A stretch of 33,080 bases of DNA from Hyphomicrobiales bacterium (GTDB lineage Bacteria > Pseudomonadota > Alphaproteobacteria > Rhizobiales > TMED25), in contig JADHLM010000003.1 in assembly GCA_016780665.1 (NCBI GenBank), positions 1-33,080 of the forward strand. Direction: 5' to 3'. The notes beneath the pieces are model-generated. The model saw only the letters and a list, made by a program, of their open reading frames with translations, made no database searches and was not told where the DNA came from. Position numbers and translations under genes: made by a program. Each line of letters starts with the position of its first letter. Position 1 is the stretch's first letter. Positions 4,750 through 21,287 of the stretch are shown in pieces.

Positions 4750-6501
4750 ATGAGTTTTGAACAAGTTCAAAAGTATAGCAACCTGTTATCTGTATTTAGA
4801 GAAAAATCTATAGCAAATAAAGATAAACCCTACCTATGGTCAAAGCAAAATTCTGACTATACATCAATAAGCTGGTTGCAAACATACAAAGCTATAAATA
4901 ATCTTGCCAATTATCTTAAATCTATTGGAATTAAAAATGATGCAAGAGTATTACTTGTCTCTGAAAATAGACCTGAATGGCAAATAAGCGATATTGCAAT
5001 TATGGCGGCAGACGGCGTAACTGTTCCAGCTTACATAACTATAACCTCTCAGGATTACGAATATATAATTAATCATTCTGAGTCTATGGTTGTTATTGTT
5101 TCTAGCCAATCCTTATTTGAGAAAGTTGCCAATGCAATTAACAAATTAAAAAAAACAATCCATGTAATTATCATAGATGACTTTGATACTGAAGCATCTG
5201 ATTTCATCAAATTACACAATTGGGCTGATATACAAAAAGAAGTTAATAAAGAAGCAATTGATTTAATAGAATTAGAGTCAAAGAGAAAAGTTAGAACTGA
5301 TCTTTCTTGTATTATTTATACCTCTGGTACATCAGGTTCCCCAAAAGGAGTAATGTTGAGTCATGGTTCAATACTGCATAATTGTGAGGGTGCCTATAAA
5401 ATATTGAAACCAGCATTAGAGCATATTGAAGATGTATTATTTCTATCTTGGCTTCCATTATCTCATTCATATGAACACACACTTCAATTTTACAATCTAT
5501 ATTCAGGAAACCAGATATACTATGCCGAAGGTATTGATAAACTTCTACAAAATTTAGCTGAGGTAAAACCCCACCTAATGTCTGCCGTACCAAGATTTTA
5601 TGAGAACTTACTACAGAAAATTTCTTCTCAAATGAGTAAAGAAAGTAAAATTAAACAAAAATTTTTTTATGACACTATCGCTTTGGGTAGAGAACATTAT
5701 GAAAATGGTAAGTTACCTGTATACAAATCTATATACAACAAAATACTGTCCAAGCTTGTTAGAAAAAAAATTGGCAACAGATTTGGTGGTCGTCTAGTTG
5801 GATTAATTTCAGGGGGAGCTGCTCTTAACTATGAAGTGGGCATTTCACTTTACTCTTTAGGGATCCCAATTTATCAAGGTTACGGACAGACAGAAAGTGG
5901 CCCTGTTATTTCAGTAAACTACCCAGGTAATAATAAAATTAATACCGTAGGTCCCTTACTACCAAATACAAAAGTAAAAATATCTGATGATGGTGAGATA
6001 CTGGTGATAGGCGAGAACGTAATGAATGGATATTTTAGAGATAAAAATGCAACAGATGCAGCTTTTGATGGGGAATGGTTAAAAACAGGTGATATCGGAG
6101 AGTTTGATAATGATAACTACTTGCTTATTACAGATCGTATGAAAGATATTATCGTTAACTCTGGAGGTGATAATATTTCTCCCACTAAGATTGAGTCATT
6201 ATTAATTATGGAAGAAGGAATTTCACAAGCAATGGTTTTTGGTGATGGTGAAAAATATCTTGTTGCAATTATTGTCACTGACATGGATATAAATGATAAT
6301 AAAGAAAAAACTAAAGCAATTATTGATACCTCAATTGAAAAGGTTAATGGTATTCTTTCAGCAATCGAAAAAATTAAAAATTATGTGCTAATTGACGAAG
6401 AATTTACAATTGATAACGAGATGATGACACCATCAATGAAGGTTAGAAGGTTCAAAGTAATTGAAAAATATAAAAAAGAACTAGATAACCTATATCATTA
6501 A
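4750..6501 (+). CDS. fadD: Long-chain fatty acid-CoA ligase (AMP-binding)
   Basis: IIYTSGTSGSPKGV P-loop, LPLSHSYE, QGYGQTE, WLKTGDIG, TPSMKVRR. Confidence 0.92.
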   Translation: MSFEQVQKYSNLLSVFREKSIANKDKPYLWSKQNSDYTSISWLQTYKAINNLANYLKSIGIKNDARVLLVSENRPEWQISDIAIMAADGVTVPAYITITSQDYEYIINHSESMVVIVSSQSLFEKVANAINKLKKTIHVIIIDDFDTEASDFIKLHNWADIQKEVNKEAIDLIELESKRKVRTDLSCIIYTSGTSGSPKGVMLSHGSILHNCEGAYKILKPALEHIEDVLFLSWLPLSHSYEHTLQFYNLYSGNQIYYAEGIDKLLQNLAEVKPHLMSAVPRFYENLLQKISSQMSKESKIKQKFFYDTIALGREHYENGKLPVYKSIYNKILSKLVRKKIGNRFGGRLVGLISGGAALNYEVGISLYSLGIPIYQGYGQTESGPVISVNYPGNNKINTVGPLLPNTKVKISDDGEILVIGENVMNGYFRDKNATDAAFDGEWLKTGDIGEFDNDNYLLITDRMKDIIVNSGGDNISPTKIESLLIMEEGISQAMVFGDGEKYLVAIIVTDMDINDNKEKTKAIIDTSIEKVNGILSAIEKIKNYVLIDEEFTIDNEMMTPSMKVRRFKVIEKYKKELDNLYH

Positions 6502-6508
6502 AAGGTAT

Positions 6509-6637
6509 CTATTTTTTTTCCTGTCTGCATCTTTTTGAGCAGTACTTCACATCATCCCAATTTAATAACCATTTTTTACGCCAGGTAAATGGTCGGTTGC
6601 ATACAGGACAAATTTTTTGGGGTAAATTTTTATTCAT
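6509..6637 (-). CDS. DUF2256-family small Cys-rich protein (42 aa)
   Basis: Below the ORF-track size cutoff. Manual translation [42 protein letters not shown] has the CxxC-RPFxWRKKW-YCSxRC signature; overlaps the upstream gene by 8 nt. Confidence 0.9.
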
Positions 6638-6992
6638 ATAGCTGTCTTCTATTCTTTAAGTAAAGCAAATAAGAGATAACTTCATATAAATAATAAGCTA
6701 TAAAATAAATTATTTTGTACTCAAGTAATTTTTTAAGAAATCTATACTTATCAATATTCCCCCAAATTATTTTAAAAGCATCCACTCCAATATGTATTTG
6801 ACTGCCATCAAATACATGTAATCTTCGCAAGATATCTGCTTTACTTTTTAGATTTATAGCCTCTGGTAAATTCTTATCACTTAAATCAATAAAATCCAGG
6901 TTCTTTGGTCGCTGCTTTTTGTAATGATTAATTTCCATCCTACAAATAGAACAGGAACCATTATAAATTACACTAATTTTAGTTTTACTCAT
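6630..6992 (-). CDS. DCC1-like (DUF393) thiol-disulfide oxidoreductase
   Basis: YNGSCSIC CxxC motif, RLHV and GVDAF..IW. Confidence 0.88.
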
Positions 6993-7039
6993 AAGAAGAA
7001 AAGAAAAGTTACTAGTGGAACAGAGATTGTTCCACTAGT
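6993..7039 (-). terminator. Rho-independent terminator after the rhodopsin gene
   Basis: 12-bp perfect stem ACTAGTGGAACA/TGTTCCACTAGT (7011-7039), followed on the minus strand by AACTTTTCTTTTCTTCTT. Confidence 0.75.
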
Positions 7040-7047
7040 GTTTTAAT

Positions 7048-7737
7048 TCATTTTGACTCAGATGTTGCAGCAGCCCAAATTACAACACCGAATGCGATTT
7101 TGTTAACAAAATCAGCTAGGTTGTAAATAAGGTTCAGTGAGTCGGCACTTCCTGCTCCGACATACCCGATTACGTAGCCTATAGGATAAATAGCCCAACC
7201 AACCGTAACAATAATCCTTAATGCATTAAATGCTTTTTGGGATGCTGGAGTTCCCTCGCTTGCACTTATTTTACTTGCTTCACCTACGAAAATTTCATAG
7301 ATGATATAAATCCATGCAAGCATTCCAATAATAAATGCCAACCATACATTCATTGATCCAATTTCACCCAGATATCCTGCAATTAGCATAATAACGGATG
7401 CACTTAGCAATCTCCAAAATAATGATGCAGATACAACAGCAATTGCTGCAAGAATTAGATAAAATTCAACAATCTGTAATGGAACTGTTAAAAGCCAATC
7501 AACGTATCTGAATACAACTGGTGACTCACCTGTGGTAACCCATACATCACGCATATAAAAATAGTGAATTGCCGCAATACCAGTAACCATTGCAGCTACA
7601 GTTAGAGATGTCTTCCATTTCCCTACTGCTCTATCTCTTTCAACCCAGAAAAAGAAAGTGGCAGCGACCATCGCGGCTGAAATTATCCAAAAGCTAACAC
7701 CTACTAAATCTGAAGGATTGAGTTGTCCTGTTGTCAT
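7048..7737 (-). CDS. Proteorhodopsin-type light-driven proton pump, predicted blue-absorbing
   Basis: 7 TM helices; helix C RYVDWLLTVPLQIVEF gives the DTE motif with Gln at tuning position 105; His in AIHY; retinal Lys in DFVNK; AAGGGAG RBS. Confidence 0.96.
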   Translation of the reverse strand: MTTGQLNPSDLVGVSFWIISAAMVAATFFFWVERDRAVGKWKTSLTVAAMVTGIAAIHYFYMRDVWVTTGESPVVFRYVDWLLTVPLQIVEFYLILAAIAVVSASLFWRLLSASVIMLIAGYLGEIGSMNVWLAFIIGMLAWIYIIYEIFVGEASKISASEGTPASQKAFNALRIIVTVGWAIYPIGYVIGYVGAGSADSLNLIYNLADFVNKIAFGVVIWAAATSESK

Positions 7738-7855
7738 AGTATTCTCCCTTAAAATTTACTATATAACTCCTACTCAAATACATAGAATATTTGAAAAAGA
7801 TTACAAAAACAATAATTTTTTATAAATTATCAATTATTTGTCTGCTGTAATTGAT

Positions 7856-9292
7856 TTAATCACCCTTTAATATTGGAATCTGATAAGTAAATTCATCTAC
7901 CAAATGATAGCCGTCTAATGGCTCGAAATGATGCCTCTTTAGGACGTAATTTGGACTTACGACTCTGTAAGCAGAAATCTGTTTAGAAATATAAACGGCC
8001 TTTTCCCAAAAATCATCATCCCCAATAACGATAATAGTTTGTATTTTTTCTATTCCTGCGTGTGTTATTTTATTGTTAATATCAGATAATCTGTTGATCA
8101 AAAGATCTTCACTATTCATATGAACAAACTCAAGAAAATTACTCCTCGAATGAATGTTTAAGTCTAAATCCGATGGAGCATCATCAAAAATAGATAGATT
8201 TTCACTACTGATAATTGAAATAACGTTACCATAAATCTTTGACTTATAAACCTTAGAACCATTATCAGTAGCGCGATTTAATACCCTGTCTAACTTAAAT
8301 AAGTCAAACTCATTTAACGCTGAGTTTTTAGAGTCGTATATTGCTTCGAGCCTTTTAACTAACATTGTATAAAATTCATCGTGCCTGGTTGTTACGCAGC
8401 TTTGCCCCTGGCAAATCACATATGCTTCCGTCGGTGAACTGCATAATTGTTGACCTAATACTGATATAGACTTCGCCACTTCTCCTGACACGATATCTTG
8501 ATTTTTATTTAAATATTCTTCCTGTATTAATAAAATGCCAGTTAGTGCTTCCATATTTATAATATTTGGCCTATGTGAATTTTTTCTTACTGCTTGGTAA
8601 TAATATTCATTAGCTTCTCTGCCCCCCCAAATATTGATAACATCCCATGGTACAACATTTAATAATTGATCTAGTTCTAACTTTTGCATTTCAATTTGAT
8701 GGTCAAGATTTGTAAAATATATTGGAGTGCCATCGTCAAAGGGAAGAGAACTAAAAAGTTCTGTTATAGCAACTTGATGTAATTTTGGTAATTGAATAAC
8801 AGTCACATTCCCACAAAGAAAAGACAGTATACTGGCAGTAATTACTGGTAAAATAGTGTTTGAACTGCCAACTATTAAAATTAGACCCTTGGGTGATATG
8901 ACATATTCATAATTATCTGAAAGTCTCCGATTTACAGAGAGACATTCACTGTCATAAGAATTTGAAAAAGAATTACTCGGATTTTGAAAAATATTTTTTA
9001 TGGTTTCCATAGAAAATAACTCTTTGAGCAGATTAATCTCAATTTTTACTCCATTCTCTGGATATCCAAATTCAGTCATTCTATGAAAGAATTTATTTTC
9101 AACATCTTTCCAATGCTTAGTCTTAATATAATTACTGATTTTTTCTAGTTCTGCTAACCTATCTTGCAAACTCTTTTTTTTCTGTCGTGATAATTTATCA
9201 GCAAACTCCGTGAGCCATGGATATTTTTTATATAAGTTGGCCTCAACATTGCTATTATTATCATTTTTAAACCTAGAAAAAAATCTAATCAT
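7856..9292 (-). CDS. LuxC-like acyl-CoA/acyl-protein reductase (ALDH-fold)
   Basis: PKGLILIVGSSN, LCGN, WGGREA and QQLCSSP (candidate catalytic Cys). The ATG at 9292 overlaps the upstream stop (ATGA) and is preferred over the GTG at 9298. Confidence 0.8.
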   Translation of the reverse strand: MIRFFSRFKNDNNSNVEANLYKKYPWLTEFADKLSRQKKKSLQDRLAELEKISNYIKTKHWKDVENKFFHRMTEFGYPENGVKIEINLLKELFSMETIKNIFQNPSNSFSNSYDSECLSVNRRLSDNYEYVISPKGLILIVGSSNTILPVITASILSFLCGNVTVIQLPKLHQVAITELFSSLPFDDGTPIYFTNLDHQIEMQKLELDQLLNVVPWDVINIWGGREANEYYYQAVRKNSHRPNIINMEALTGILLIQEEYLNKNQDIVSGEVAKSISVLGQQLCSSPTEAYVICQGQSCVTTRHDEFYTMLVKRLEAIYDSKNSALNEFDLFKLDRVLNRATDNGSKVYKSKIYGNVISIISSENLSIFDDAPSDLDLNIHSRSNFLEFVHMNSEDLLINRLSDINNKITHAGIEKIQTIIVIGDDDFWEKAVYISKQISAYRVVSPNYVLKRHHFEPLDGYHLVDEFTYQIPILKGD

Positions 9293-10620
9293 CCACACCC
9301 TTCGCGTATTTTGAACCCTTCATCTTCTTTTGCGCGACGAGAATATATGAAGCCATTTTGGGATAAGTTTCTTTTTCCCATAACCGTATCAATTTGATTT
9401 TTATCATCAGCTGGCTTTACAAAATCTCCAGGCACAATCGCTTCAATGTAATCAAGAGTCGCAAAATTTAAATAATATAACAAGTAATCTTTACCAGGCT
9501 TCGGATTCTTGACTGGAGTCAAATCAGTAGGTGACTCTAACAAAGCAATATAAGTAAGAGGATGAGGATATTTGACCCATGCATCAGAAGTTTGAGGATC
9601 ATTAGGTAAGCCTATAAATACACACAATGACTCTGTTAGACCCAACATATCTATTACTGGAGCTGATTTTTTAACCTTACTTCCTGTAAATATTTTATCT
9701 CCAGTTGCTCTTACAACCTGATCTAATGATGTAATGTGCGAAGGTAGTCTTTTTAGACCGCCTCCAATCATTAAAACTCCATTTTCACCTAGCTGCACAG
9801 GAGGGGCACCAAGAGATAATTTCATCATCAGAGCTTTGAACCCCGTCGGCTCAATGAACATCTTATATAAGCCAACTCCGCTAGCAATAAAGTATTTTGT
9901 ACTATTTTTGCTCTGAAAAAACTTCCTCATTTCTTTTATATTTGGGCCTATTCTTTGCCAAATGGTGGAGTCTTTAGGACCTTTGTTAACTTTTGCTCCA
10001 AAAGAGACTGACAAACCTCTGTGCCTCAGAAAATCTGAACCAATTGCAGCAAAAGCAAGAAAGTCTGTCATTTCTGGTGCCATGTGAAATAAACACTCTC
10101 CATCATTTATCTCCTTACCAATGGACCAATCAATCAAATTACCATTAATTTTTCTAGATAAATCTAATGATAGATTTGATCTATATACATTAACGGGCCC
10201 TATTGTTCCCAATGTTGTGCCACTTGACATGAAGCTCATGCCAAAGGATTTATCTGAAAAATGTTCAATTAAGCGTGACTTCTGGCCATCTCCTCTCAAA
10301 TCATCGGAGTGGATTCTTAATTTTATAAGATCATGTAATTTTATATCTTTCTTGAGTTTCCCATCATTATTTTCAGCTAAGCCACGGCTAAAAAATAACT
10401 TTTTGTAATAACCATTTTTATCATGACGTAAAAAAAACTCTAGATATGGATATATTAAACTATTCTGCAACCTCTCAGTATCATTTGGAGAGAAATCAGT
10501 CATAATGTTTTTATTAGACAGTACTTCCTGAAGTTTTTTTACATAGGGATCATCAATAACAAATGATTTTTCTATTGATAGATCTGCAGGCATTCCATGC
10601 CCATTAAAAGCTCCTATCAT
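9289..10620 (-). CDS. Divergent LuxE-like acyl-protein synthetase (adenylate-forming)
   Basis: FMSSGTT P-loop, GGGLK, DMLGLTE, GD motif and C-terminal R...EGCG with the acyl-accepting Cys typical of LuxE; AGGGGG RBS. Confidence 0.75.
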   Translation of the reverse strand: MIGAFNGHGMPADLSIEKSFVIDDPYVKKLQEVLSNKNIMTDFSPNDTERLQNSLIYPYLEFFLRHDKNGYYKKLFFSRGLAENNDGKLKKDIKLHDLIKLRIHSDDLRGDGQKSRLIEHFSDKSFGMSFMSSGTTLGTIGPVNVYRSNLSLDLSRKINGNLIDWSIGKEINDGECLFHMAPEMTDFLAFAAIGSDFLRHRGLSVSFGAKVNKGPKDSTIWQRIGPNIKEMRKFFQSKNSTKYFIASGVGLYKMFIEPTGFKALMMKLSLGAPPVQLGENGVLMIGGGLKRLPSHITSLDQVVRATGDKIFTGSKVKKSAPVIDMLGLTESLCVFIGLPNDPQTSDAWVKYPHPLTYIALLESPTDLTPVKNPKPGKDYLLYYLNFATLDYIEAIVPGDFVKPADDKNQIDTVMGKRNLSQNGFIYSRRAKEDEGFKIREGCG

Positions 10621-10662
10621 TATTCAACCCCCCTATTTATAAATAATGAATATCAAATTATC

Positions 10663-11082
10663 TCATAAGAAAATCTTATCAGATAATGAATAAGTCAACA
10701 AAGAATAAGAGAGTAATTTAAATACTGATGCATACATTGCTTCTGGAGATACCTTATATTTTCCTCTCCCATATGTCATGGCAATATCAAAATAGGATAA
10801 AGTGTTATAAATTGTACTAGCTCCAAATACGACGATGCCAAAAACGAAAAAAGCCCAGTTACCAGAAGGCCCAAAAATTAGTATTAAAAATGCAACCGTT
10901 GCCTCTGCTGTTGGCCAACATGCGGCAAATCTTGCGATTAATGCTGCAGACTCATCGATATTATACCTTGCTAAAACTTTTTTTGTTTCCCAAAGTTGGA
11001 CTGCTGCATAAAACCCAGGTGTAAATATACAAGCAAAAATAAACAATACTAATGTGTATATGTTGTTAAAATTCTCTACCAT
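10663..11082 (-). CDS. Hypothetical integral membrane protein (~4 TM)
   Basis: Four hydrophobic segments; strong GGAGG RBS; 14-nt gap to the upstream gene. Confidence 0.8.
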   Translation of the reverse strand: MVENFNNIYTLVLFIFACIFTPGFYAAVQLWETKKVLARYNIDESAALIARFAACWPTAEATVAFLILIFGPSGNWAFFVFGIVVFGASTIYNTLSYFDIAMTYGRGKYKVSPEAMYASVFKLLSYSLLTYSLSDKIFL

Positions 11083-11096
11083 CTAAAATCCTCCCT

Positions 11097-11783
11097 CTAT
11101 TCTTTATTTGTTACAACATCAACTAACACTGCGATTATTAGATTTAATATTGTAATTGAACCAATTGCAATAAAACTATAAAAATAAATCCAAGCCCACC
11201 AAAATATTTCTTGCATTGGTAACATAACAGTTTCCCAACTGGATAGAGTTAGAACTTGAAAAAGAGTTATCATCGCAACGCCCAAATCACCCCAACGACC
11301 TGGGTCTGAAGTAGCGAATAAAATACTACCAATTGATGCATAAACATAAATTATAATAAACAGCAACAATGAAACATAAAAGACCCTTTTTAATGACTTT
11401 AGTAATGACTCAATGAGTTCCTTCAATTCGGGAATTGCTGAGATTAGTCTTAATACCCGAAAAATTCTTAACAACCTTAGAACAAGTATTGAGGAGTTTG
11501 GTCCTACAGGAATAATTGAGGCTATTACTATTATCGTATCAAATATATTCCATCCATCCTTAAAGAAATGTAACTTCCTTTTTTCTGCAAAAAATCGTAT
11601 CGAAATCTCTACCACAAAAAAAAGAGTTATCAATACATCCAAGGAATGAAGAATAAATAGAATACTTGGTGGTATATTATATGTGGATGCACCAACTAAA
11701 AGTGCAGATAATATAATGGCGAATACAACAATGGCCTGAAAAAGCCTGTGATCTTTGATATTTTTAAATAAGTTTCTGTTCAT
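11097..11783 (-). CDS. Voltage-gated ion channel, BacNav/NaChBac-like (Ion_trans)
   Basis: GWNIFD in S3; S4 LRLLRIFRVLRLI; pore FQVLTLSSWE; S6 ILNLIIAVLV. Start set at ATG 11783, which overlaps the cutA stop (ATGA). Confidence 0.9.
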   Translation of the reverse strand: MNRNLFKNIKDHRLFQAIVVFAIILSALLVGASTYNIPPSILFILHSLDVLITLFFVVEISIRFFAEKRKLHFFKDGWNIFDTIIVIASIIPVGPNSSILVLRLLRIFRVLRLISAIPELKELIESLLKSLKRVFYVSLLLFIIIYVYASIGSILFATSDPGRWGDLGVAMITLFQVLTLSSWETVMLPMQEIFWWAWIYFYSFIAIGSITILNLIIAVLVDVVTNKE

Positions 11784-12103
11784 GTCTCTGTTGTGATTGA
11801 TTTCAAGAGCCAATTTGCATAATCATCATCGATTTGAGTAATAGGTAACCCAATAATGCACGGTATCTCATATGAATGAAACTTTTTTATTTGTTTTTTA
11901 ATTTCAGTAAAATTCTTTTCAATTGCTTTCATAATGATTGTACATTCTTCATCTTGGGCAATCTTATTGTCCCATTTATATAAAGAGATCATTGAAGGGT
12001 ATATGTTTGAACAAGCAATTAAATTATTTTCAAGTAAAATTTCAGATATGCGTTTTGCTTCATTCAATGAAGAACATGTGGTGTAGATTAGAAAAAATTT
12101 CAT
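11780..12103 (-). CDS. cutA: Divalent-cation tolerance protein CutA
   Basis: LIACSNI, SLYKWD and HSYEIPCI motifs. Confidence 0.93.
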   Translation of the reverse strand: MKFFLIYTTCSSLNEAKRISEILLENNLIACSNIYPSMISLYKWDNKIAQDEECTIIMKAIEKNFTEIKKQIKKFHSYEIPCIIGLPITQIDDDYANWLLKSITTET

Positions 12104-15750: not shown

Positions 15751-17121
15751 ATGTATAGAAATAAATTGCCTTCATTAGATAAAGAAAATTTTATCCACCC
15801 TTTAACCCACCTTGCGAAGTTTGATAGAGGTGAGATACCAGCAAGGATTATGAAGTCTGCGAAGGGTGTAAAAATAAAAGACTTTGATGATAAAGAATAT
15901 ATAGATGCCTTCTCTGGGTTGTATTGTGTCAATGTTGGATATGGCTGCACTGAGATTATTGATGCAATAAAAAAACAGGCGGAAAATTTAGCTTACTATC
16001 ATGCATACTATGGGAATGGTACTGAAGCATCTATTAAATTATCTAATGTGGTTGTAAATTTAGCCCCAAAAAACATGAGTAAGATATATTTTGGATTAAC
16101 GGGTTCAGATGCAAACGAAACTAATATTAAATTGCTATGGCATTACAACAATTTGATAGGAAAACCTGAGAAGAAAAAAATTATTTCAAGAAATGGATCC
16201 TATCATGGCTCGGGGATAATTACTGGTAGTTTGACTGGACTTAAAAACTACCATAAAAACTTTGACCTTCCATTGAACAATTTCTTACATACTGAAGAAG
16301 CTAACTACTTTCATAGGAGTAATTTAGATCAAAGCGAGGAAGAATTCTCAAAATATTGTGCTGATAAATTAGAAGATACAATACTAATAGAAGGTCCAGA
16401 AACAATTGCAGGATTTATTGCAGAACCTGTAATGGGAAATGGCGGCTTAGTTCCACCACCAAAAGATTATTGGAGTAACGTATGTAAGGTACTCAAAAAA
16501 TATAATATTTTATTTATTGCAGATGAGGTTATCACAGGTTTTGGAAGACTCGGTGAGATGTTTGGCAGTGATTATTATGGCATCAAAGCAGATTTAATAA
16601 CTGTTGCAAAGGGTATTACGTCTGCCTATGCTCCGTTATCTGGTTCTATTATCTCAGATGAGATTTACGATGTTATAAGAGATGGGACAGATAAGAATGG
16701 TGTATTTACTCACGGATCCACATACTCGGCACACCCAATTTCATGCGCAGCTGCAGTAGCAAACTTAAATTTTATTAATAAAAATAATCTAATTAATAAA
16801 GGTTCAGAAATTGCAAAATATTTCAATATGAAACTGAAAGAGACATTTATTGATCATCCAAATGTGGGTGATATCAGATACGAGGGACTCCTATCAGCTA
16901 TTGAGTTGGTAAAAGAGAAAAAAAATAGACTCTACTTCAAAAATCAAGGGGCTTTGGCTCAAGAGATTGTTTCCAAAATGGCAGTTAATGGTATTCTCGC
17001 AAGAGCAATGCCGTCCGGAGACACTATTGGATTTGCACCTGCTTTTTGTTTATCCAAAAAAGATGCTGATATAATCATTGATTGCACATCAAAGAGTATT
17101 AATCAGGTTATAAACCACTAA
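15751..17121 (+). CDS. Class-III PLP aminotransferase, DoeD-like (diaminobutyrate transaminase subfamily)
   Basis: GLYCVNVGYG, LAYYHAY, GSDANETNIK, YHGS, ADEVITGFGRLG and TVAKG (PLP Lys). The subfamily call is from recalled similarity. Confidence 0.85.
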   Translation: MYRNKLPSLDKENFIHPLTHLAKFDRGEIPARIMKSAKGVKIKDFDDKEYIDAFSGLYCVNVGYGCTEIIDAIKKQAENLAYYHAYYGNGTEASIKLSNVVVNLAPKNMSKIYFGLTGSDANETNIKLLWHYNNLIGKPEKKKIISRNGSYHGSGIITGSLTGLKNYHKNFDLPLNNFLHTEEANYFHRSNLDQSEEEFSKYCADKLEDTILIEGPETIAGFIAEPVMGNGGLVPPPKDYWSNVCKVLKKYNILFIADEVITGFGRLGEMFGSDYYGIKADLITVAKGITSAYAPLSGSIISDEIYDVIRDGTDKNGVFTHGSTYSAHPISCAAAVANLNFINKNNLINKGSEIAKYFNMKLKETFIDHPNVGDIRYEGLLSAIELVKEKKNRLYFKNQGALAQEIVSKMAVNGILARAMPSGDTIGFAPAFCLSKKDADIIIDCTSKSINQVINH

Positions 17122-17848
17122 TACTATGAACTTTGCTCAAGATATCTTGATCAATTTTTATCCTCTTATTGTTTACTGATAACTTCCACGGTATCCCTTC
17201 AACAGCTTCTTCAAAAGTGAAATCATCTAGAATACTATCTAAATTCCAACCACTTGGAGACATGACAAATTTAGCTTTGTCTGTAATTAAAATTGAAGGG
17301 CCTTTACCTAACTGATATTTAACTCTCAATTTATCAAATGCTGCTCCAGAGCCAGGACTTGTTATAAAATCAACTTTTTCAACAAATCTTCTTGGATCGT
17401 GGGGCATGAGAATAATTAAATTAGGGATTAAACATGCAATATCATGCGCTCCACCTGAGCCAACCATTCTTACCTTGGGATTTTGATAGCCTCCTATAAC
17501 TGTTGAGTTTAAATTACCAAAAATGTCTATTTGAGCGGCCGAGAGTAGTCCAACATCAATTCTACCAGCTTGTAGATCAGAAAAAACAGAGAAACTATCT
17601 GTGATCATATCTGATCCATGGGCTATTGATGGACTGCCTGTGGAATAAGATTTTGTTTTTGGCATTGCGCCAATAGCCCCAGACTCATAAATTAAATTTA
17701 TATTGGGTTCAATTGTATCCTTAGCAAGGCATGCAGTATCTGATGGAATTCCTATACCCACAAAACATGATCGGTATCCTTTTAATTCCATTGCTGCAAT
17801 CATGGCGATCCTTTTATCGGGGTTAATTTCTCTGTGGTTAACTTTCAT
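17108..17848 (-). CDS. Family I CoA-transferase beta subunit (GctB/CatJ-like)
   Basis: FVGIGIP, IYESG (catalytic Glu), AQIDIFGNLNST, GSGGAHD and DFITSPG. Confidence 0.9.
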   Translation of the reverse strand: MKVNHREINPDKRIAMIAAMELKGYRSCFVGIGIPSDTACLAKDTIEPNINLIYESGAIGAMPKTKSYSTGSPSIAHGSDMITDSFSVFSDLQAGRIDVGLLSAAQIDIFGNLNSTVIGGYQNPKVRMVGSGGAHDIACLIPNLIILMPHDPRRFVEKVDFITSPGSGAAFDKLRVKYQLGKGPSILITDKAKFVMSPSGWNLDSILDDFTFEEAVEGIPWKLSVNNKRIKIDQDILSKVHSISGL

Positions 17849-18731
17849 CCAATGCTCCGCATAAACCCTTTTCTAGGGACAACCTATTTTCTTTCCCTAT
17901 CTTTTCCATATATAATTCGATATTATCTACGTTAATTACCCATTCACTAAGATAGCGCTCTAGTTCTGACTCATTTCTTGAGACAGAGTCATAAGATATA
18001 TAATGCTGGTCATCTCTTGAGTAAAAACCTGATACATAAGATGGATATGCACCCCATGGAAGCTCAACAATATTTGTAACCCTGTGAGATGGAATAATTG
18101 TTTTTTCAGGAGAGTCTTTTATTTCTATATTATCTATAATTCTTTCAACACTTACTATAATACGATCCGACGCTAATGCCCCCTCAACAGTGTCCCCGTC
18201 AATACCCCACATCTGAACATTTCCATATTTATCAGCCTGTTGCGCATGAATTAATGACACATCCGGTTTCAATGAAGGAATAGCTGTATATTCTTGACCC
18301 GTGTATGGAGAAATAATTTTTTTTATAAATTGGATATTTTCTGGCAAATTACCAATTTGTAGTATTTTTGAGGGTATAAAATCAATACCCATCCGAGCGG
18401 CATGTAACCTCATGATTATTGACTGATTTGTCCATTCTTCAATTTCAATCGTTTTAGATTTATATGCTCTATTAAAAGAATGAGAAAGCCCGACTGTTGG
18501 ATTCCCAATATAACCAAAAATAACTTTTTTTATTATGCCTGAAGCTATTAATTGATCAAACAAAATATCAGCACCAGACCTGCAAATAGACAAATTATTT
18601 ATATTCTGCCTTATAAGTTCGTGTGCTAAATAAAATGGTATTAAATGACCAAAACCACCAATAAATATTAAATCATCAGATGAAACATTATTTTTAATAG
18701 CATCATGTAAGTTTGATAACTTTTCAATCAT
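17838..18731 (-). CDS. Family I CoA-transferase alpha subunit (GctA/CatI-like)
   Basis: GGFGHLIP..AHELIRQ, PDVSLIHAQQADKYGN and PWGAYPS; overlaps the beta gene. Confidence 0.9.
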   Translation of the reverse strand: MIEKLSNLHDAIKNNVSSDDLIFIGGFGHLIPFYLAHELIRQNINNLSICRSGADILFDQLIASGIIKKVIFGYIGNPTVGLSHSFNRAYKSKTIEIEEWTNQSIIMRLHAARMGIDFIPSKILQIGNLPENIQFIKKIISPYTGQEYTAIPSLKPDVSLIHAQQADKYGNVQMWGIDGDTVEGALASDRIIVSVERIIDNIEIKDSPEKTIIPSHRVTNIVELPWGAYPSYVSGFYSRDDQHYISYDSVSRNESELERYLSEWVINVDNIELYMEKIGKENRLSLEKGLCGALDES

Positions 18732-18741
18732 GATTTAATTG

Positions 18742-19941
18742 CTAAATAACTTCTGCTTTTGCAAGTGCCTCAATTTGATCATTATCGTAACCTATTGATT
18801 GCAGAATTTCTCTATTATCCTCGCCGAGCAGCGGTGGAGCCTTATTGATTGTCGCTGGTGTATCAGAAAACCTATATGGAACACCCAACATTTTTAAAAC
18901 TCCAGCTTCTGAATGATTTACACTCACGACCATATCATTTGATATAGTCTGTTCGTCAGAGAGTGCATTCTCAACGGAGTTCACAGCACTTGCAGGAATG
19001 TTAGAACCCAATAATTTCTCTAACCATTCATCTACTTTTTTTGTGCTAATTACATCTTGTATTTCCTTATCAATAATACTTCGATTTATAACCCGGTCAG
19101 CATTTTTTATAAATCTTTTGTCTTTTGCCCAATCATCTCTTCCAAGACAGGATGCAAATTTAGCAAATTGTATATCATTGCCTACTGCAATTGCAATACT
19201 ACCATCTATGGCATCAAATGTTCTATATGGAACAATATTTGGATGACCATTTCCAAATCTTCGAGCTGGTTTTCCGCTGACAAGATGATTTGCAGCAACA
19301 TTAACAAGCATTGAGATACTTGTGGTATAAAGACTTGTTTCAACTTTCTGTCCCTTACCAGATATGTTCCTTGAGTTTAATGCCCCTAGAATAGCAATTG
19401 TAGCATTCATACCGGTACAGACATCCACTAATGCGACACCAACTTTCATTGGATCACCATTTTCTTCCCCCGTGATGCTCATCAAACCGCTCTCTGCTTG
19501 AAGAAGAAAATCATAACCCGGTCTTTTGCCGCGAGGTCCTCTTCCCCCGTAACCAGTAATTTGACAATGAACTAGTTGAGGAGCCTCTTTTTTGCGCCAC
19601 TCATCTGTGATTCCATAGTTATCCATTGTTCCAAATTTAAAATTCTCAATCAAAACATCAGAGTTCTTTAGTAGTTTTTTGAGTATTTTTATGCCTTCTT
19701 CAGATTTAAGATTAAGGGTAACACTTTTTTTATTTCTGTTAATTCCAAGAAAATATGCTGCCTCACTTCCAGCAAATGGGGGTCCCCAGGATCTTGTATC
19801 ATCACCTTTTCCAGGTTGTTCAATTTTAATAATCTCTGCACCCATATCTCCGAGATTCATGGTGCAAAATGGACCAGCTAAAATTCTACTTAAATCAAGA
19901 ACCCTGATACCACTTAGTGGTCCATTTTTATTTTCACTCAT
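18742..19941 (-). CDS. Family III CoA-transferase (CaiB/BaiF)
   Basis: PLSGIRVLDLSRILAGP, GDDTR, NRNKKS, GYD, LVDVCTG (catalytic Asp) and PPLLGE. Confidence 0.95.
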   Translation of the reverse strand: MSENKNGPLSGIRVLDLSRILAGPFCTMNLGDMGAEIIKIEQPGKGDDTRSWGPPFAGSEAAYFLGINRNKKSVTLNLKSEEGIKILKKLLKNSDVLIENFKFGTMDNYGITDEWRKKEAPQLVHCQITGYGGRGPRGKRPGYDFLLQAESGLMSITGEENGDPMKVGVALVDVCTGMNATIAILGALNSRNISGKGQKVETSLYTTSISMLVNVAANHLVSGKPARRFGNGHPNIVPYRTFDAIDGSIAIAVGNDIQFAKFASCLGRDDWAKDKRFIKNADRVINRSIIDKEIQDVISTKKVDEWLEKLLGSNIPASAVNSVENALSDEQTISNDMVVSVNHSEAGVLKMLGVPYRFSDTPATINKAPPLLGEDNREILQSIGYDNDQIEALAKAEVI

Positions 19942-19958
19942 ACCAATTGACCATAGCT

Positions 19959-20825
19959 TTATCTTGGTCTTTCATTTTCATCATTAGCAAGACCATCGAG
20001 ATATGATTCAACATTTTCTCTTCTTCTTTCACGGAACTGCTGGAAATTTGGTTTTCTCTTTTCAAGAAAAGCATTCATCCCTTCAAGTGACTCTTCTGAT
20101 CCCCATACGTGTGCTAGAAGCTCCATACCATGTTGCCAACTTGCATATAAAGTATCGGAGTCATGGTTAAGTGATTTTTTGGTTTGTCTAATTGTTTGTC
20201 CGCTTCGTTCTATTAATCCTTCAGCCCACTTTTGTGTTTCTTCTTCTAATTTAGCTTTTGGAACAACTCTGTTAATCAAACCGATGCTTACTGCTTCCTC
20301 TGCTGTAAATCTTCTGGCCATAAAAATCATTTCTTTAGCAAGTCTTGAACCAATTAATTGAGGCAAATATTGGGTAGCACCAACTGTTGGACATGCTCCA
20401 ACTACAGCACCACTTTGTCCAAATACAGCATCATCTGCAGCAATAACCAAATCGCACCATAATGCCAATTCATGACCACCACCCATGCAATACCCATGAA
20501 CTGAAGCGATGACAGGAATGGGAACACCTCTTATTGCCATTGCAAGAGCAAGCATTCTATCATTCCAATGTGCTGCATTTTCCCAATCTAATCTCATCAT
20601 TGCATGAAAATCACCGCCAGCCGAAAAAGCTTTATCACCAACTCCATTAATCACAATGCAGACTATTGATGGATCATTTCTTGTGGATAGAACTGCATCC
20701 GTTAGTTCGTCTAGTGTTTGTTCTCTGAAGGCATTCCTAACTTCAGGTCTATTTATTGATATCCATGCTACTTTATTTTTTATTTCAAATAAAATTTCCT
20801 TATACTTACCGCCAGCTTTTGACAT
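19959..20825 (-). CDS. Crotonase-family enzyme, BadI/MenB-like subfamily
   Basis: INRPEVRNAFR, AFSAGGD, GYCMGGGHE, FGQSG and EGMNAFLEKRKPNF. Confidence 0.88.
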   Translation of the reverse strand: MSKAGGKYKEILFEIKNKVAWISINRPEVRNAFREQTLDELTDAVLSTRNDPSIVCIVINGVGDKAFSAGGDFHAMMRLDWENAAHWNDRMLALAMAIRGVPIPVIASVHGYCMGGGHELALWCDLVIAADDAVFGQSGAVVGACPTVGATQYLPQLIGSRLAKEMIFMARRFTAEEAVSIGLINRVVPKAKLEEETQKWAEGLIERSGQTIRQTKKSLNHDSDTLYASWQHGMELLAHVWGSEESLEGMNAFLEKRKPNFQQFRERRRENVESYLDGLANDENERPR

Positions 20826-20870
20826 TCTTTACCTCTGTTTATTAATATTTTTTTCGAGTTTAAGTTATCA

Positions 20871-21287
20871 TCATTTTTCATTTTCTTCAACCTCAATCAG
20901 GGCACCTGAAAGCTCATTTGGATGAATAAAATATAAATTTCTCCCATGATACCCTGATGTTGGCTCTGCTGTAAGGTTCAAACCACTTTTTTTATGCTTG
21001 TCGTATTCACTATTAACATCGTTAACGGATACACAGTAATGATGAAGACCACCTTTTGGATTTTTCTCTAAGAACTTTGTAATTGGAGATTTATCGTTTA
21101 ATGGCTCCATTAGTTCAATTTTTAAGTTTTCAAATGAAATTACTGCCATCTTTATATTTTGCTTTTCAATAATCATTATCTCAGATATCGGAACATTGAA
21201 TAATTTTTTGTATGCTAAAATAGCTTTATCAATGTTTGGTACTGCATGTGCGATGTGATCAATATTCATATTTTTATTCCATATCAA
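20871..21287 (-). CDS. mce: Methylmalonyl-CoA epimerase-like VOC protein (start may be the second ATG, 21269)
   Basis: DHIAHAV, KIELMEP, GGLHH, FIHP..LSGALIE. Confidence 0.85.
   Translation of the reverse strand: MIWNKNMNIDHIAHAVPNIDKAILAYKKLFNVPISEIMIIEKQNIKMAVISFENLKIELMEPLNDKSPITKFLEKNPKGGLHHYCVSVNDVNSEYDKHKKSGLNLTAEPTSGYHGRNLYFIHPNELSGALIEVEENEK

Follow-up and report, generated by a model that had tools for sequence, protein, structure and literature searches.

The best described counterpart of the genes reported here is the LuxC-LuxE complex of Photobacterium phosphoreum (7xc6). According to its description (PMC9157457), LuxE is an adenylating enzyme of the PaaK type that lacks the C-terminal subdomain and ends in a tail of about 20 residues, on which a conserved Cys carries the acyl group; a catalytic pair, Lys238/Arg355, serves adenylation and thioesterification. 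Its partner LuxC is a reductase of the aldehyde dehydrogenase (ALDH) fold with an active-site Cys, and the two genes are adjacent and translationally coupled. Here we describe a locus of similar architecture in a 33,080-nt stretch of DNA (hereafter, the window) from a Hyphomicrobiales bacterium (contig JADHLM010000003.1; genome G000), in which a LuxE-like and a LuxC-like gene precede a proteorhodopsin gene (studied stretch, positions 7,048-10,620). Unlike the lux systems, the window contains no luxA, luxB or luxD gene, and the pair is linked to rhodopsins, not to luciferase.

Carboxylic acid reductases, as generally described, carry out the same overall conversion, from acid, ATP and NADPH to aldehyde via an adenylate and a thioester, but they do so with a phosphopantetheine carrier and an SDR-type reductase, whereas the pair analyzed here has a candidate protein Cys carrier and an ALDH fold. 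The known bacterial route to retinal, the aldehyde chromophore of rhodopsins, involves the Blh/Brp beta-carotene 15,15'-dioxygenase together with crtEIBY, genes that often neighbour proteorhodopsin. Blh and the cassette are alike in that each is found beside an opsin, blh in a genome of the same genus (G013) and the cassette in the window, and in that retinal is the proposed product of both; they differ in that the proteins are unrelated and that one route is an oxidative cleavage of a carotenoid and the other the reduction of an acid. Many prokaryotes with rhodopsins have none of the known genes for retinal formation. One such bacterium makes retinal by an unknown pathway, and the source of retinal in rhodopsin bearers devoid of blh is acknowledged as an open problem (Nakajima et al. 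2020, PMC7734400). In the literature searched, no paper linked LuxC/LuxE-like genes to rhodopsins and none described a biological reduction of retinoic acid to retinal.

Results

A LuxCE-type gene pair upstream of a proteorhodopsin

Five close-packed genes occupy the minus strand of the window. In the 5′ to 3′ direction, they encode an Ion_trans channel, a predicted small membrane protein of 139 amino acids (orf139), the LuxE-like protein, the LuxC-like protein and the opsin. The LuxE-like gene (9289-10620, 443 aa) is predicted from its motifs and an AlphaFold2 model to specify an adenylating acyl-protein synthetase, and the LuxC-like gene (7856-9292, 478 aa) is predicted from PF05893 and a model to specify an NAD(P)H-dependent acyl reductase of the ALDH fold. 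The opsin gene (7048-7737, 229 aa) follows in the same orientation, beyond a 118-nt spacer (7738-7855). The original prediction, made by inspection of the sequence, had singled out the motifs SSGTT, EGCG, WGG and QQLCSSP in the two lux-like proteins and the co-oriented opsin 118 nt away across a gap without a GC-rich terminator, and had claimed that the 33 kb hold no luxA/B/D, blh or crt gene. All of this held up: the motifs are present on the minus strand, a simple scan found no terminator-like site in the gap, and Pfam scans of the 34 non-overlapping open reading frames (ORFs) of at least 80 aa called in the window detected no member of the luciferase, LuxD, Blh or Crt families. Thus, as far as the window ORFs covered by this search are concerned, the locus is not a luxCDABE bioluminescence operon. 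The prediction had overlooked orf139, the third co-oriented gene of what we refer to as the cassette.

The opsin matches PF01036 (Bac_rhodopsin) with an E value of 8.5e-50, and its closest solved relatives are the green and blue proteorhodopsins (E about 3e-84). Its helix-C motif is DWLLTVPLQIVEF and a lysine lies within the motif FVNKIAFG. We take these to represent the D/T/E residues of a proton pump, with a Gln at the tuning site that presumably sets blue absorption, and the Schiff-base Lys that binds retinal. The domain, the nearest characterised relatives and the lysine together identify the protein as a proteorhodopsin.

The LuxE-like protein contains the motifs SSGTT (residues 132-136), GGGLK290, DMLGLTE (324-330) and R428-R429, and a tail REGC442G, ending in IREGCG. 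In an alignment of 28 sequences, S132, S133, T135, K290, R428, R429 and G443 are invariant, while C442, the second-to-last residue, is at least 90% conserved (one sequence has Ser). The AlphaFold2 model has a pLDDT of 87, falling below 50 in the tail (RRA...EGF.IREGCG), in which the Cys comes 13 residues after the Arg pair. Foldseek returned PaaK1 as the top match to the model (2y27, E 3e-10), and VIA-align gave Z scores of 25-27 to PaaK-type ligases as against about 15 for other ANL enzymes. The best structural matches are 2y27, BT_0428 (4r1m) and 2-hydroxyisobutyryl-CoA ligase (6he0), with 316-333 residues aligned. The alignment pairs model residues 25-440 with residues ~5-360 of the PaaK-type ligases (7-330 in PaaK1) and so takes in no more than the N-terminal domain of these enzymes. 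The ligases retain the C-terminal subdomain and pass the acyl group to CoA, whereas the LuxE-like protein ends in the Cys tail. Thus, by its model, the protein appears to be a PaaK-type ANL N-terminal domain without C-terminal subdomain, and by alignment and pLDDT its C-terminus is a short, flexible tail that bears a conserved Cys; both are features of LuxE. K290 and R428-R429 were tentatively matched to Lys238 and Arg355 of the P. phosphoreum enzyme by order and spacing, not by superposition. Sequence searches of the solved structures turned up nothing meaningful, whether started from the single sequence or from the 28-row profile. The LuxE chain of 7xc6 is not among the Foldseek and VIA-align matches listed; this is uninformative because the chain is fragmentary, as its description indicates (PMC9157457).

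The LuxE-like protein also departs from Photobacterium LuxE. It is about 70 residues longer, its tail reads (K/Q)IREGCG as opposed to TRxxKGCxLS, the LuxE tail motif given in PMC9157457, and it has no match to PF04443 (LuxE) even at E 10. No precomputed PF04443 match was found in 75 homologue clusters. A distant member of the family, P0120, passes the model (27.4 bits, cut-off 24.9), and an Atlas feature search returned one cluster with PF04443 in 56% of its members (score 0.96), which we regard as a lead only. An exhaustive profile search of 1.84 billion cluster representatives gave 65 representatives of the LuxE-like family at E ≤0.001, a group separate from that of the lux systems. We conclude that the protein, as modelled, is a LuxE by architecture and not by Pfam model. 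Some of its homologues come from DNA of very different composition: those of loci L006 and L008 (59-62% G+C) and L005 and L007 (28-30% G+C) are 65-68% identical to the window protein. Such conservation across some 30 G+C points suggests, at the sequence level, that the protein is under strong constraint, that it has spread horizontally among marine alphaproteobacteria, or both.

The junction between the two lux-like genes reads GGG TGT GGA TGA TTA GAT, so that the luxE stop codon TGA and the luxC start codon ATG overlap as ATGA, as originally predicted. The true start of the LuxC-like protein is the ATG at 9292 (MIRFF) and not the GTG at 9298 of the automatic ORF list, because this is how the overlap reads; homologues and the 478-aa cluster P0076 agree. 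With residue numbers following the 480-aa ORF, the protein contains W224-G225-G226 and G282-Q-Q-L-C286-S-S-P-T290. All 17 sequences compared, those from Clostridia and actinomycetes included, have identical residues at Q283, C286, S287, S288, P289 and T290. The window protein passes PF05893 (LuxC) with 31.7 bits (cut-off 21; E 1e-7) over residues 61-319 and profile positions 18-261 of 401, or 61% of the Pfam model, and PF05893 is precomputed in 32 of its 41 homologue clusters. Its AlphaFold2 model (pLDDT 79) resembles aldehyde dehydrogenases generally; among the matches listed, the highest TM-score is that of P. phosphoreum LuxC (7xc6_A; TM 0.69/0.70, root-mean-square deviation 3.9 Å, E 2.5e-16), with 16% sequence identity. 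An ALDH-type fold with a conserved Cys is therefore predicted. The profile check proposed at the outset, in which both proteins were to be confirmed with Pfam models, came out positive for the LuxC-like protein and negative for its partner.

A luxC gene follows luxE in every locus in which the DNA continues, except L089, and a natural LuxE-like::LuxC fusion exists (P0132, 884 aa), which keeps the R.GCG motif and whose LuxC domain matches PF05893 with E 4.9e-20. The ATGA coupling and this fusion argue that the two proteins work together. Architecture and fold support the initial assignment of the pair as a LuxE/LuxC-type acid-to-aldehyde reductase, which we consider very likely to be correct. 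By analogy with the Photobacterium complex, from which its chemistry is deduced, the pair probably works like LuxCE while forming a small branch of its own.

The first gene of the cassette, orf139 (10663-11082, minus strand), ends 42 nt before luxE, and this interval contains a GGGGGG stretch for ribosome binding. The orf139 product has no Pfam match even at E 10 and is modelled as a helical bundle (pTM 0.82); its Atlas clusters are unnamed, and NCBIfam holds no name for it, for the LuxE-like protein or for the LuxC-like protein. Of the 12 loci with a homologue, 11 have the gene directly upstream of luxE; these are all the loci of the opsin-adjacent clade (see below) that reach that far. In the twelfth, L077, it is found downstream of luxE on the opposite strand. 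Paralogues of equal length, 27-32% identical, occur once or twice per genome in 13 of the 15 genomes of the genus (e.g., G000:C50:205-618). Together, orf139 and its paralogues make up an unnamed family of small membrane proteins.

Linkage of the pair to two unrelated opsins

Loci were collected from a scan of one genome per species (14 loci) and a scan of metagenome contigs (54 loci); 30 of them, in which the known sequence extends 800 nt or more beyond luxC, were informative. An opsin gene lies downstream of luxC in seven: L003 and L053, from the window's species; L004 and L054-L056, labelled Rhodobacteraceae; and L011, from a metagenome-assembled genome (MAG) of Clostridia. In addition, L086 has a partial opsin at the contig end, and in genome G052 orf139-luxE closes one contig (L016) and luxC-opsin opens another (L113). 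A maximum-likelihood tree built from 44 LuxE-like sequences places the window protein in a clade of nine rows (support 94/94) labelled Rhodobiaceae and Rhodobacteraceae/Paracoccaceae. Seven of these rows are opsin-adjacent loci and two belong to contigs that end too early; none is known to lack the opsin. Within the clade, luxC identity drops to 46%, the spacers between luxC and opsin show no relationship and the outer flanks vary, yet the order orf139-luxE-luxC-opsin is kept. The motifs singled out in the original prediction hold across both families.

The Clostridia LuxE-like sequence stands apart in the tree, on a long branch. The L011 rhodopsin gene (L011 7503-8210, minus strand; PF01036 E 2.5e-52) is convergent to luxC and 36 nt away. 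Its product is a relative of xenorhodopsins and Anabaena sensory rhodopsin (E 5.6e-83), only 24% identical to the window opsin. The retinal chromophore is nearly all that an outward proton pump and a xenorhodopsin-type opsin share. The helix-C motif of the L011 opsin is DWVVTTPLLLLSL, and on the other side of the pair in this locus are a GntR regulator and a TRAP transporter.

When the flank ORFs were clustered all against all, no other neighbour of the pair proved to be conserved between lineages; genes for NUDIX and EamA proteins, GMP synthase and UvrB recur near it within single lineages only. In a Spirochaete MAG, the gene directly upstream of the LuxE-like gene encodes a protein of 2,575 aa that contains bacterial Ig-like domains (L009 72-7799), and the contig ends before any luxC.

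Rhodopsins and retinal genes in carrier genomes

Rhodopsin genes are present in 10 of the 13 other genomes carrying the LuxE-like gene, as compared to 33 of 400 alphaproteobacteria sampled evenly across the class, a contrast that in part reflects habitat. The blh gene was found in none of these 13 carriers, nor in the window's genome or the near-identical G014, that is, in 0 of 15 carriers in all; in the genomes examined, blh and the cassette are mutually exclusive. In the background, blh occurs in 21 of 32 rhodopsin-bearing alphaproteobacteria in the class sample, in 7 of the 15 genus members, and in 23 of the 31 genomes related to a SAR116 carrier (G042). Fisher's test of 0/10 versus 21/32 gives p = 5e-4, which overstates the significance because related genomes are not independent data points; a rough product over lineages, each counted as one event, is about 0.006.

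Neither G000 (76% complete) nor G014 (99% complete, 8% contamination) yielded a match to blh (PF15461), phytoene synthase (PF00494) or carotenoid oxygenase (PF03055), and the same searches detected both blh and crtB in 7 of the 15 genus genomes. The Clostridia genome has no blh, crtB or RPE65 match. Strong crtB matches among carriers are confined to a Spirochaete (G046) and two actinomycetes (G049 and G051), and an RPE65-type oxygenase is found in one of 12 rhodopsin-bearing carriers, the same Spirochaete.

The original prediction had named two tests that these data address. Carriers indeed turned out to lack blh. As for opsin adjacency in independent lineages, the outcome was mixed: it extends to a second alphaproteobacterial family and to a Clostridia MAG, and it is absent from 23 of the 30 informative loci.

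Presence and loss of the cassette within the genus

The genus comprises 15 species-level genomes of 0.9-1.6 Mb, that of the window measuring 0.94 Mb, and 13 of the 15 have a single opsin. The ion-channel gene (11097-11813, minus strand, voltage-gated-channel-like, 14 nt before orf139 in the window) and a gene for a DCC1-like thiol-disulfide oxidoreductase (Pfam; 6630-6992) flank the opsin throughout the genus, forming a conserved neighbourhood. In G001, G003, G006 and G012, the opsin directly follows the channel gene, and only in G000 and G014 do three extra genes separate the two. All three ORFs are intact in G014, with 98-99% protein identity to those of the window.

The situation in G004 is informative as to the history of the cassette. 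The flanks in this genome are 91-96% identical to window DNA and the opsin protein is 99% identical; blastn breakpoints show that the segment 7903-11068 (minus strand), present in the window and G014, is missing. In G004, the first codons of orf139 run directly into the final 15 codons of luxC at TGGTAGA (L049 10132-10145), a 7-base direct repeat whose two copies lie at the start of orf139 and 15 codons before the luxC stop; what remains is a 16-codon ORF 5′ of the intact opsin gene. By its sequence, the G004 spacer is evidently a deletion scar. Since this is so, the cassette would be older than the split between G000 and G004 and was lost in the latter.

In G013, the gene order differs (opsin, DCC1-like gene, ion channel), and the opposite flank of the opsin carries blh and crtB at a distance of a few kb (L045 ~6600-11900).

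Promoter, read-through and RNA evidence

The 118-nt luxC-opsin spacer, compared across the genus, contains a promoter-like element on the minus strand, TTGTTT (7812-7807) and TATTCT (7789-7784) separated by 17 nt. The pattern TTGTTT-N17-TATT(C/T)T, about 90 nt 5′ of the opsin start, is common to the window, G004, G001, G012 and G013; the last four keep it in the absence of the cassette, whatever the gene upstream. The element was not evident in the opsin upstream regions of G003, G006 and G009, and a sigma-70 consensus scan of the gap found no promoter, the conserved element scoring below the scan threshold. Because the element is conserved in the genus with or without the cassette, the opsin very probably has its own promoter within the gap, as judged from sequence comparison; the caveat to this effect in the original prediction proved justified. 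On this view, the ion-channel gene lies on one side of the cassette and the opsin's native promoter region on the other. Read-through from luxC into the opsin gene is possible, since no terminator-like site follows luxC. A terminator-like hairpin of 12 pairs (5 G-C) was found by the same kind of scan directly 3′ of the opsin (7011-7039, minus strand), ahead of the DCC1-like gene.

Contigs from metatranscriptomes cover the region in 4 of 4 runs from three studies. One, of 1,971 nt, spans luxC and luxE; another, of 1,700 nt, has one end within luxC and extends through the gap and the opsin into the downstream gene. These RNA-library contigs are unstranded, may include DNA and carry neither transcript ends nor level, which limits what they can contribute to a link between cassette and opsin; the parts of luxC without RNA-contig cover in some runs carry no evidential weight. 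The contigs are consistent with transcription and read-through and prove neither.

Other genes of the window

Five of the 34 window ORFs have no Pfam match. Elsewhere in the window, a run of minus-strand genes (17108-21287) encodes two family I CoA-transferase subunits, one family III CoA-transferase, an enoyl-CoA hydratase and a glyoxalase-fold protein; it looks like an organic-acid catabolic cluster.

Discussion

The best overall explanation for these observations is that the locus is a LuxCE-type reductase cassette whose most likely role is to supply the rhodopsin chromophore. We assign this reading a probability of roughly 0.47. The link to rhodopsin is proposed because the pair occurs in two independent neighbourhoods with unrelated opsins, because gene order is kept, and because carriers have no blh; a functional tie of the pair to rhodopsin or retinal is, in our estimate, close to an even proposition. 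In the mechanism we envisage, the LuxE-like protein would activate a free acid with ATP, through its SSGTT P-loop, K290 and R428/R429, to give an acyl-AMP. The acyl group would then be held as a thioester on Cys442 of the flexible C-terminal tail, handed over to Cys286 of the ALDH-fold LuxC-like protein, and freed as the aldehyde with NAD(P)H. The product would be retinal, formed from retinoic acid or a related apocarotenoic acid in cells unable to cleave carotenoids, the acid being either taken up or derived from the oxidation of scavenged retinal. As a speculation, the orf139 protein could assist the pair at the membrane by handling its hydrophobic substrate or product. Retinoic acid is favoured because its reduction is the simplest chemistry that joins an aldehyde-forming reductase to opsins in carotenoid-less cells. 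Salvage of this kind is the leading hypothesis, drawn from gene neighbourhood and phyletic pattern, and we hold it with somewhat less than even confidence. More tentative still is the proposal that the LuxE/LuxC-like family is the first system to reduce retinoic or apocarotenoic acid to retinal independently of Blh, with orf139 as a dedicated component in the opsin-linked clade.

Several findings weigh against a role in chromophore supply. The 23 informative loci without an opsin after luxC are one; moreover, none of the roughly 20 loci (26 rows) of the sister marine clade is opsin-adjacent, and alphaproteobacterial adjacency may have a single origin spread by transfer, so that the evidence would reduce to one event plus the Clostridia case. 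Three carriers that are MAGs of soil actinomycetes have no rhodopsin, and L089 has a LuxE-like gene without luxC. G004 dropped the cassette and kept its opsin intact, and the opsin appears to have its own promoter. The Spirochaete G046, with crtB and an RPE65-type oxygenase, may make retinal anyway. Many carriers are incomplete MAGs or single-amplified genomes. The solved relatives nearest to the LuxE-like protein act on small or aromatic acids. Finally, the pair is found in only 2 of 7 blh-less rhodopsin genomes of the genus, 2 of 8 among the SAR116 relatives, and 0 of 10 in the class sample, where the pair search recovered 5 of 5 positive controls. The idea that the pair fills the gap in all rhodopsin genomes devoid of blh was considered and rejected, most such genomes being without it.

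In a rival explanation, the pair would be a general reductase of fatty or other lipid acids, a LuxCE without luciferase whose aldehydes would feed lipid, alcohol or wax metabolism or serve in detoxification; its position next to opsins would then reflect a variable spot in the genome or a single co-transfer with the opsin. LuxC/LuxE chemistry is established for fatty acids (PMC9157457), most family loci are not opsin-adjacent, and the spot beside the opsin is indeed variable in the genus, the cassette being present, deleted or absent and crt/blh taking a place near the opsin in G013. A long-chain acyl-CoA synthetase-like gene lies nearby (4750-6501), and the opsin has an upstream element of its own. 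In the rhodopsin-free actinomycetes, a zinc-type alcohol dehydrogenase gene stands beside the pair, convergent to luxC (L014 10677-12851, L015, L093 and L100; ORF calls are unreliable in this high-G+C DNA), which fits, and hints at, an acid-to-aldehyde-to-alcohol route in that clade. Yet chance adjacency of the pair to a single opsin gene, in a genome of several thousand genes, should occur in the order of once in 1,000 per lineage, and adjacency is seen both in an alphaproteobacterial clade and in Clostridia with an unrelated opsin. Nor would a general reductase account for the order kept in the alphaproteobacterial clade in spite of luxC divergence and differing flanks, or for the absence of blh from carriers against a background of 21/32, and the window ORFs include no LuxD-type acyl donor or aldehyde-using enzyme. 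We therefore view this explanation as doubtful, albeit a serious contender.

That the pair instead reduces an imported hydrophilic or aromatic carboxylate, for catabolism or to make a small metabolite, with no part in chromophore supply, seems unlikely. The idea derives from TRAP genes (DctP/Q/M) found a few genes from the pair in L004 (3359-7304), L005 (10933-14003) and L011 (258-3333, accompanied by the GntR regulator), and from the substrates of the best structural relatives of the LuxE-like protein, which activate phenylacetate, 2-hydroxyisobutyrate, salicylate and aminohydroxybenzoate. However, TRAP systems are common in marine alphaproteobacteria, and the three DctP proteins are not orthologous, matching one another at 25% identity or not significantly. 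No transporter adjoins the pair in the window, in L006-L008 or in the actinomycete loci, and both the opsin neighbours and the absence of blh would be left unexplained. In L004, a gene for a TauD-family dioxygenase lies between the TRAP genes and the pair. Very improbable, in our judgement, is the notion that these genes are decaying passengers without present function. The simple deletion in G004 and the rarity of the family would be in keeping with it, but the three ORFs are intact in both the window and G014, the LuxE-like protein is 65-74% identical across loci ranging from 28% to 62% G+C with invariant catalytic residues, and RNA-library contigs cover the genes.

Returning to the cassette as a source of chromophore, the interest of the locus is that it offers a defined and rare two-enzyme candidate for retinal supply, linked to two unrelated opsin types and found only in blh-less genomes. 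If the proposal is true, the cassette would represent a new reaction in retinoid biochemistry, one by which cells reverse a step that is usually considered irreversible, and bacteria lacking both carotenoids and blh could salvage or recycle the chromophore of their rhodopsins. Genome-based estimates of which marine bacteria have working rhodopsins would change accordingly. Retinoic acids have reportedly been found in the environment in connection with cyanobacterial blooms, and such compounds would become tied to bacterial phototrophy. Should the retinal role fail, the genes would still define a new branch of LuxCE-type acid reductases, clearly delimited and drawn to opsin genes for reasons yet to be explained.

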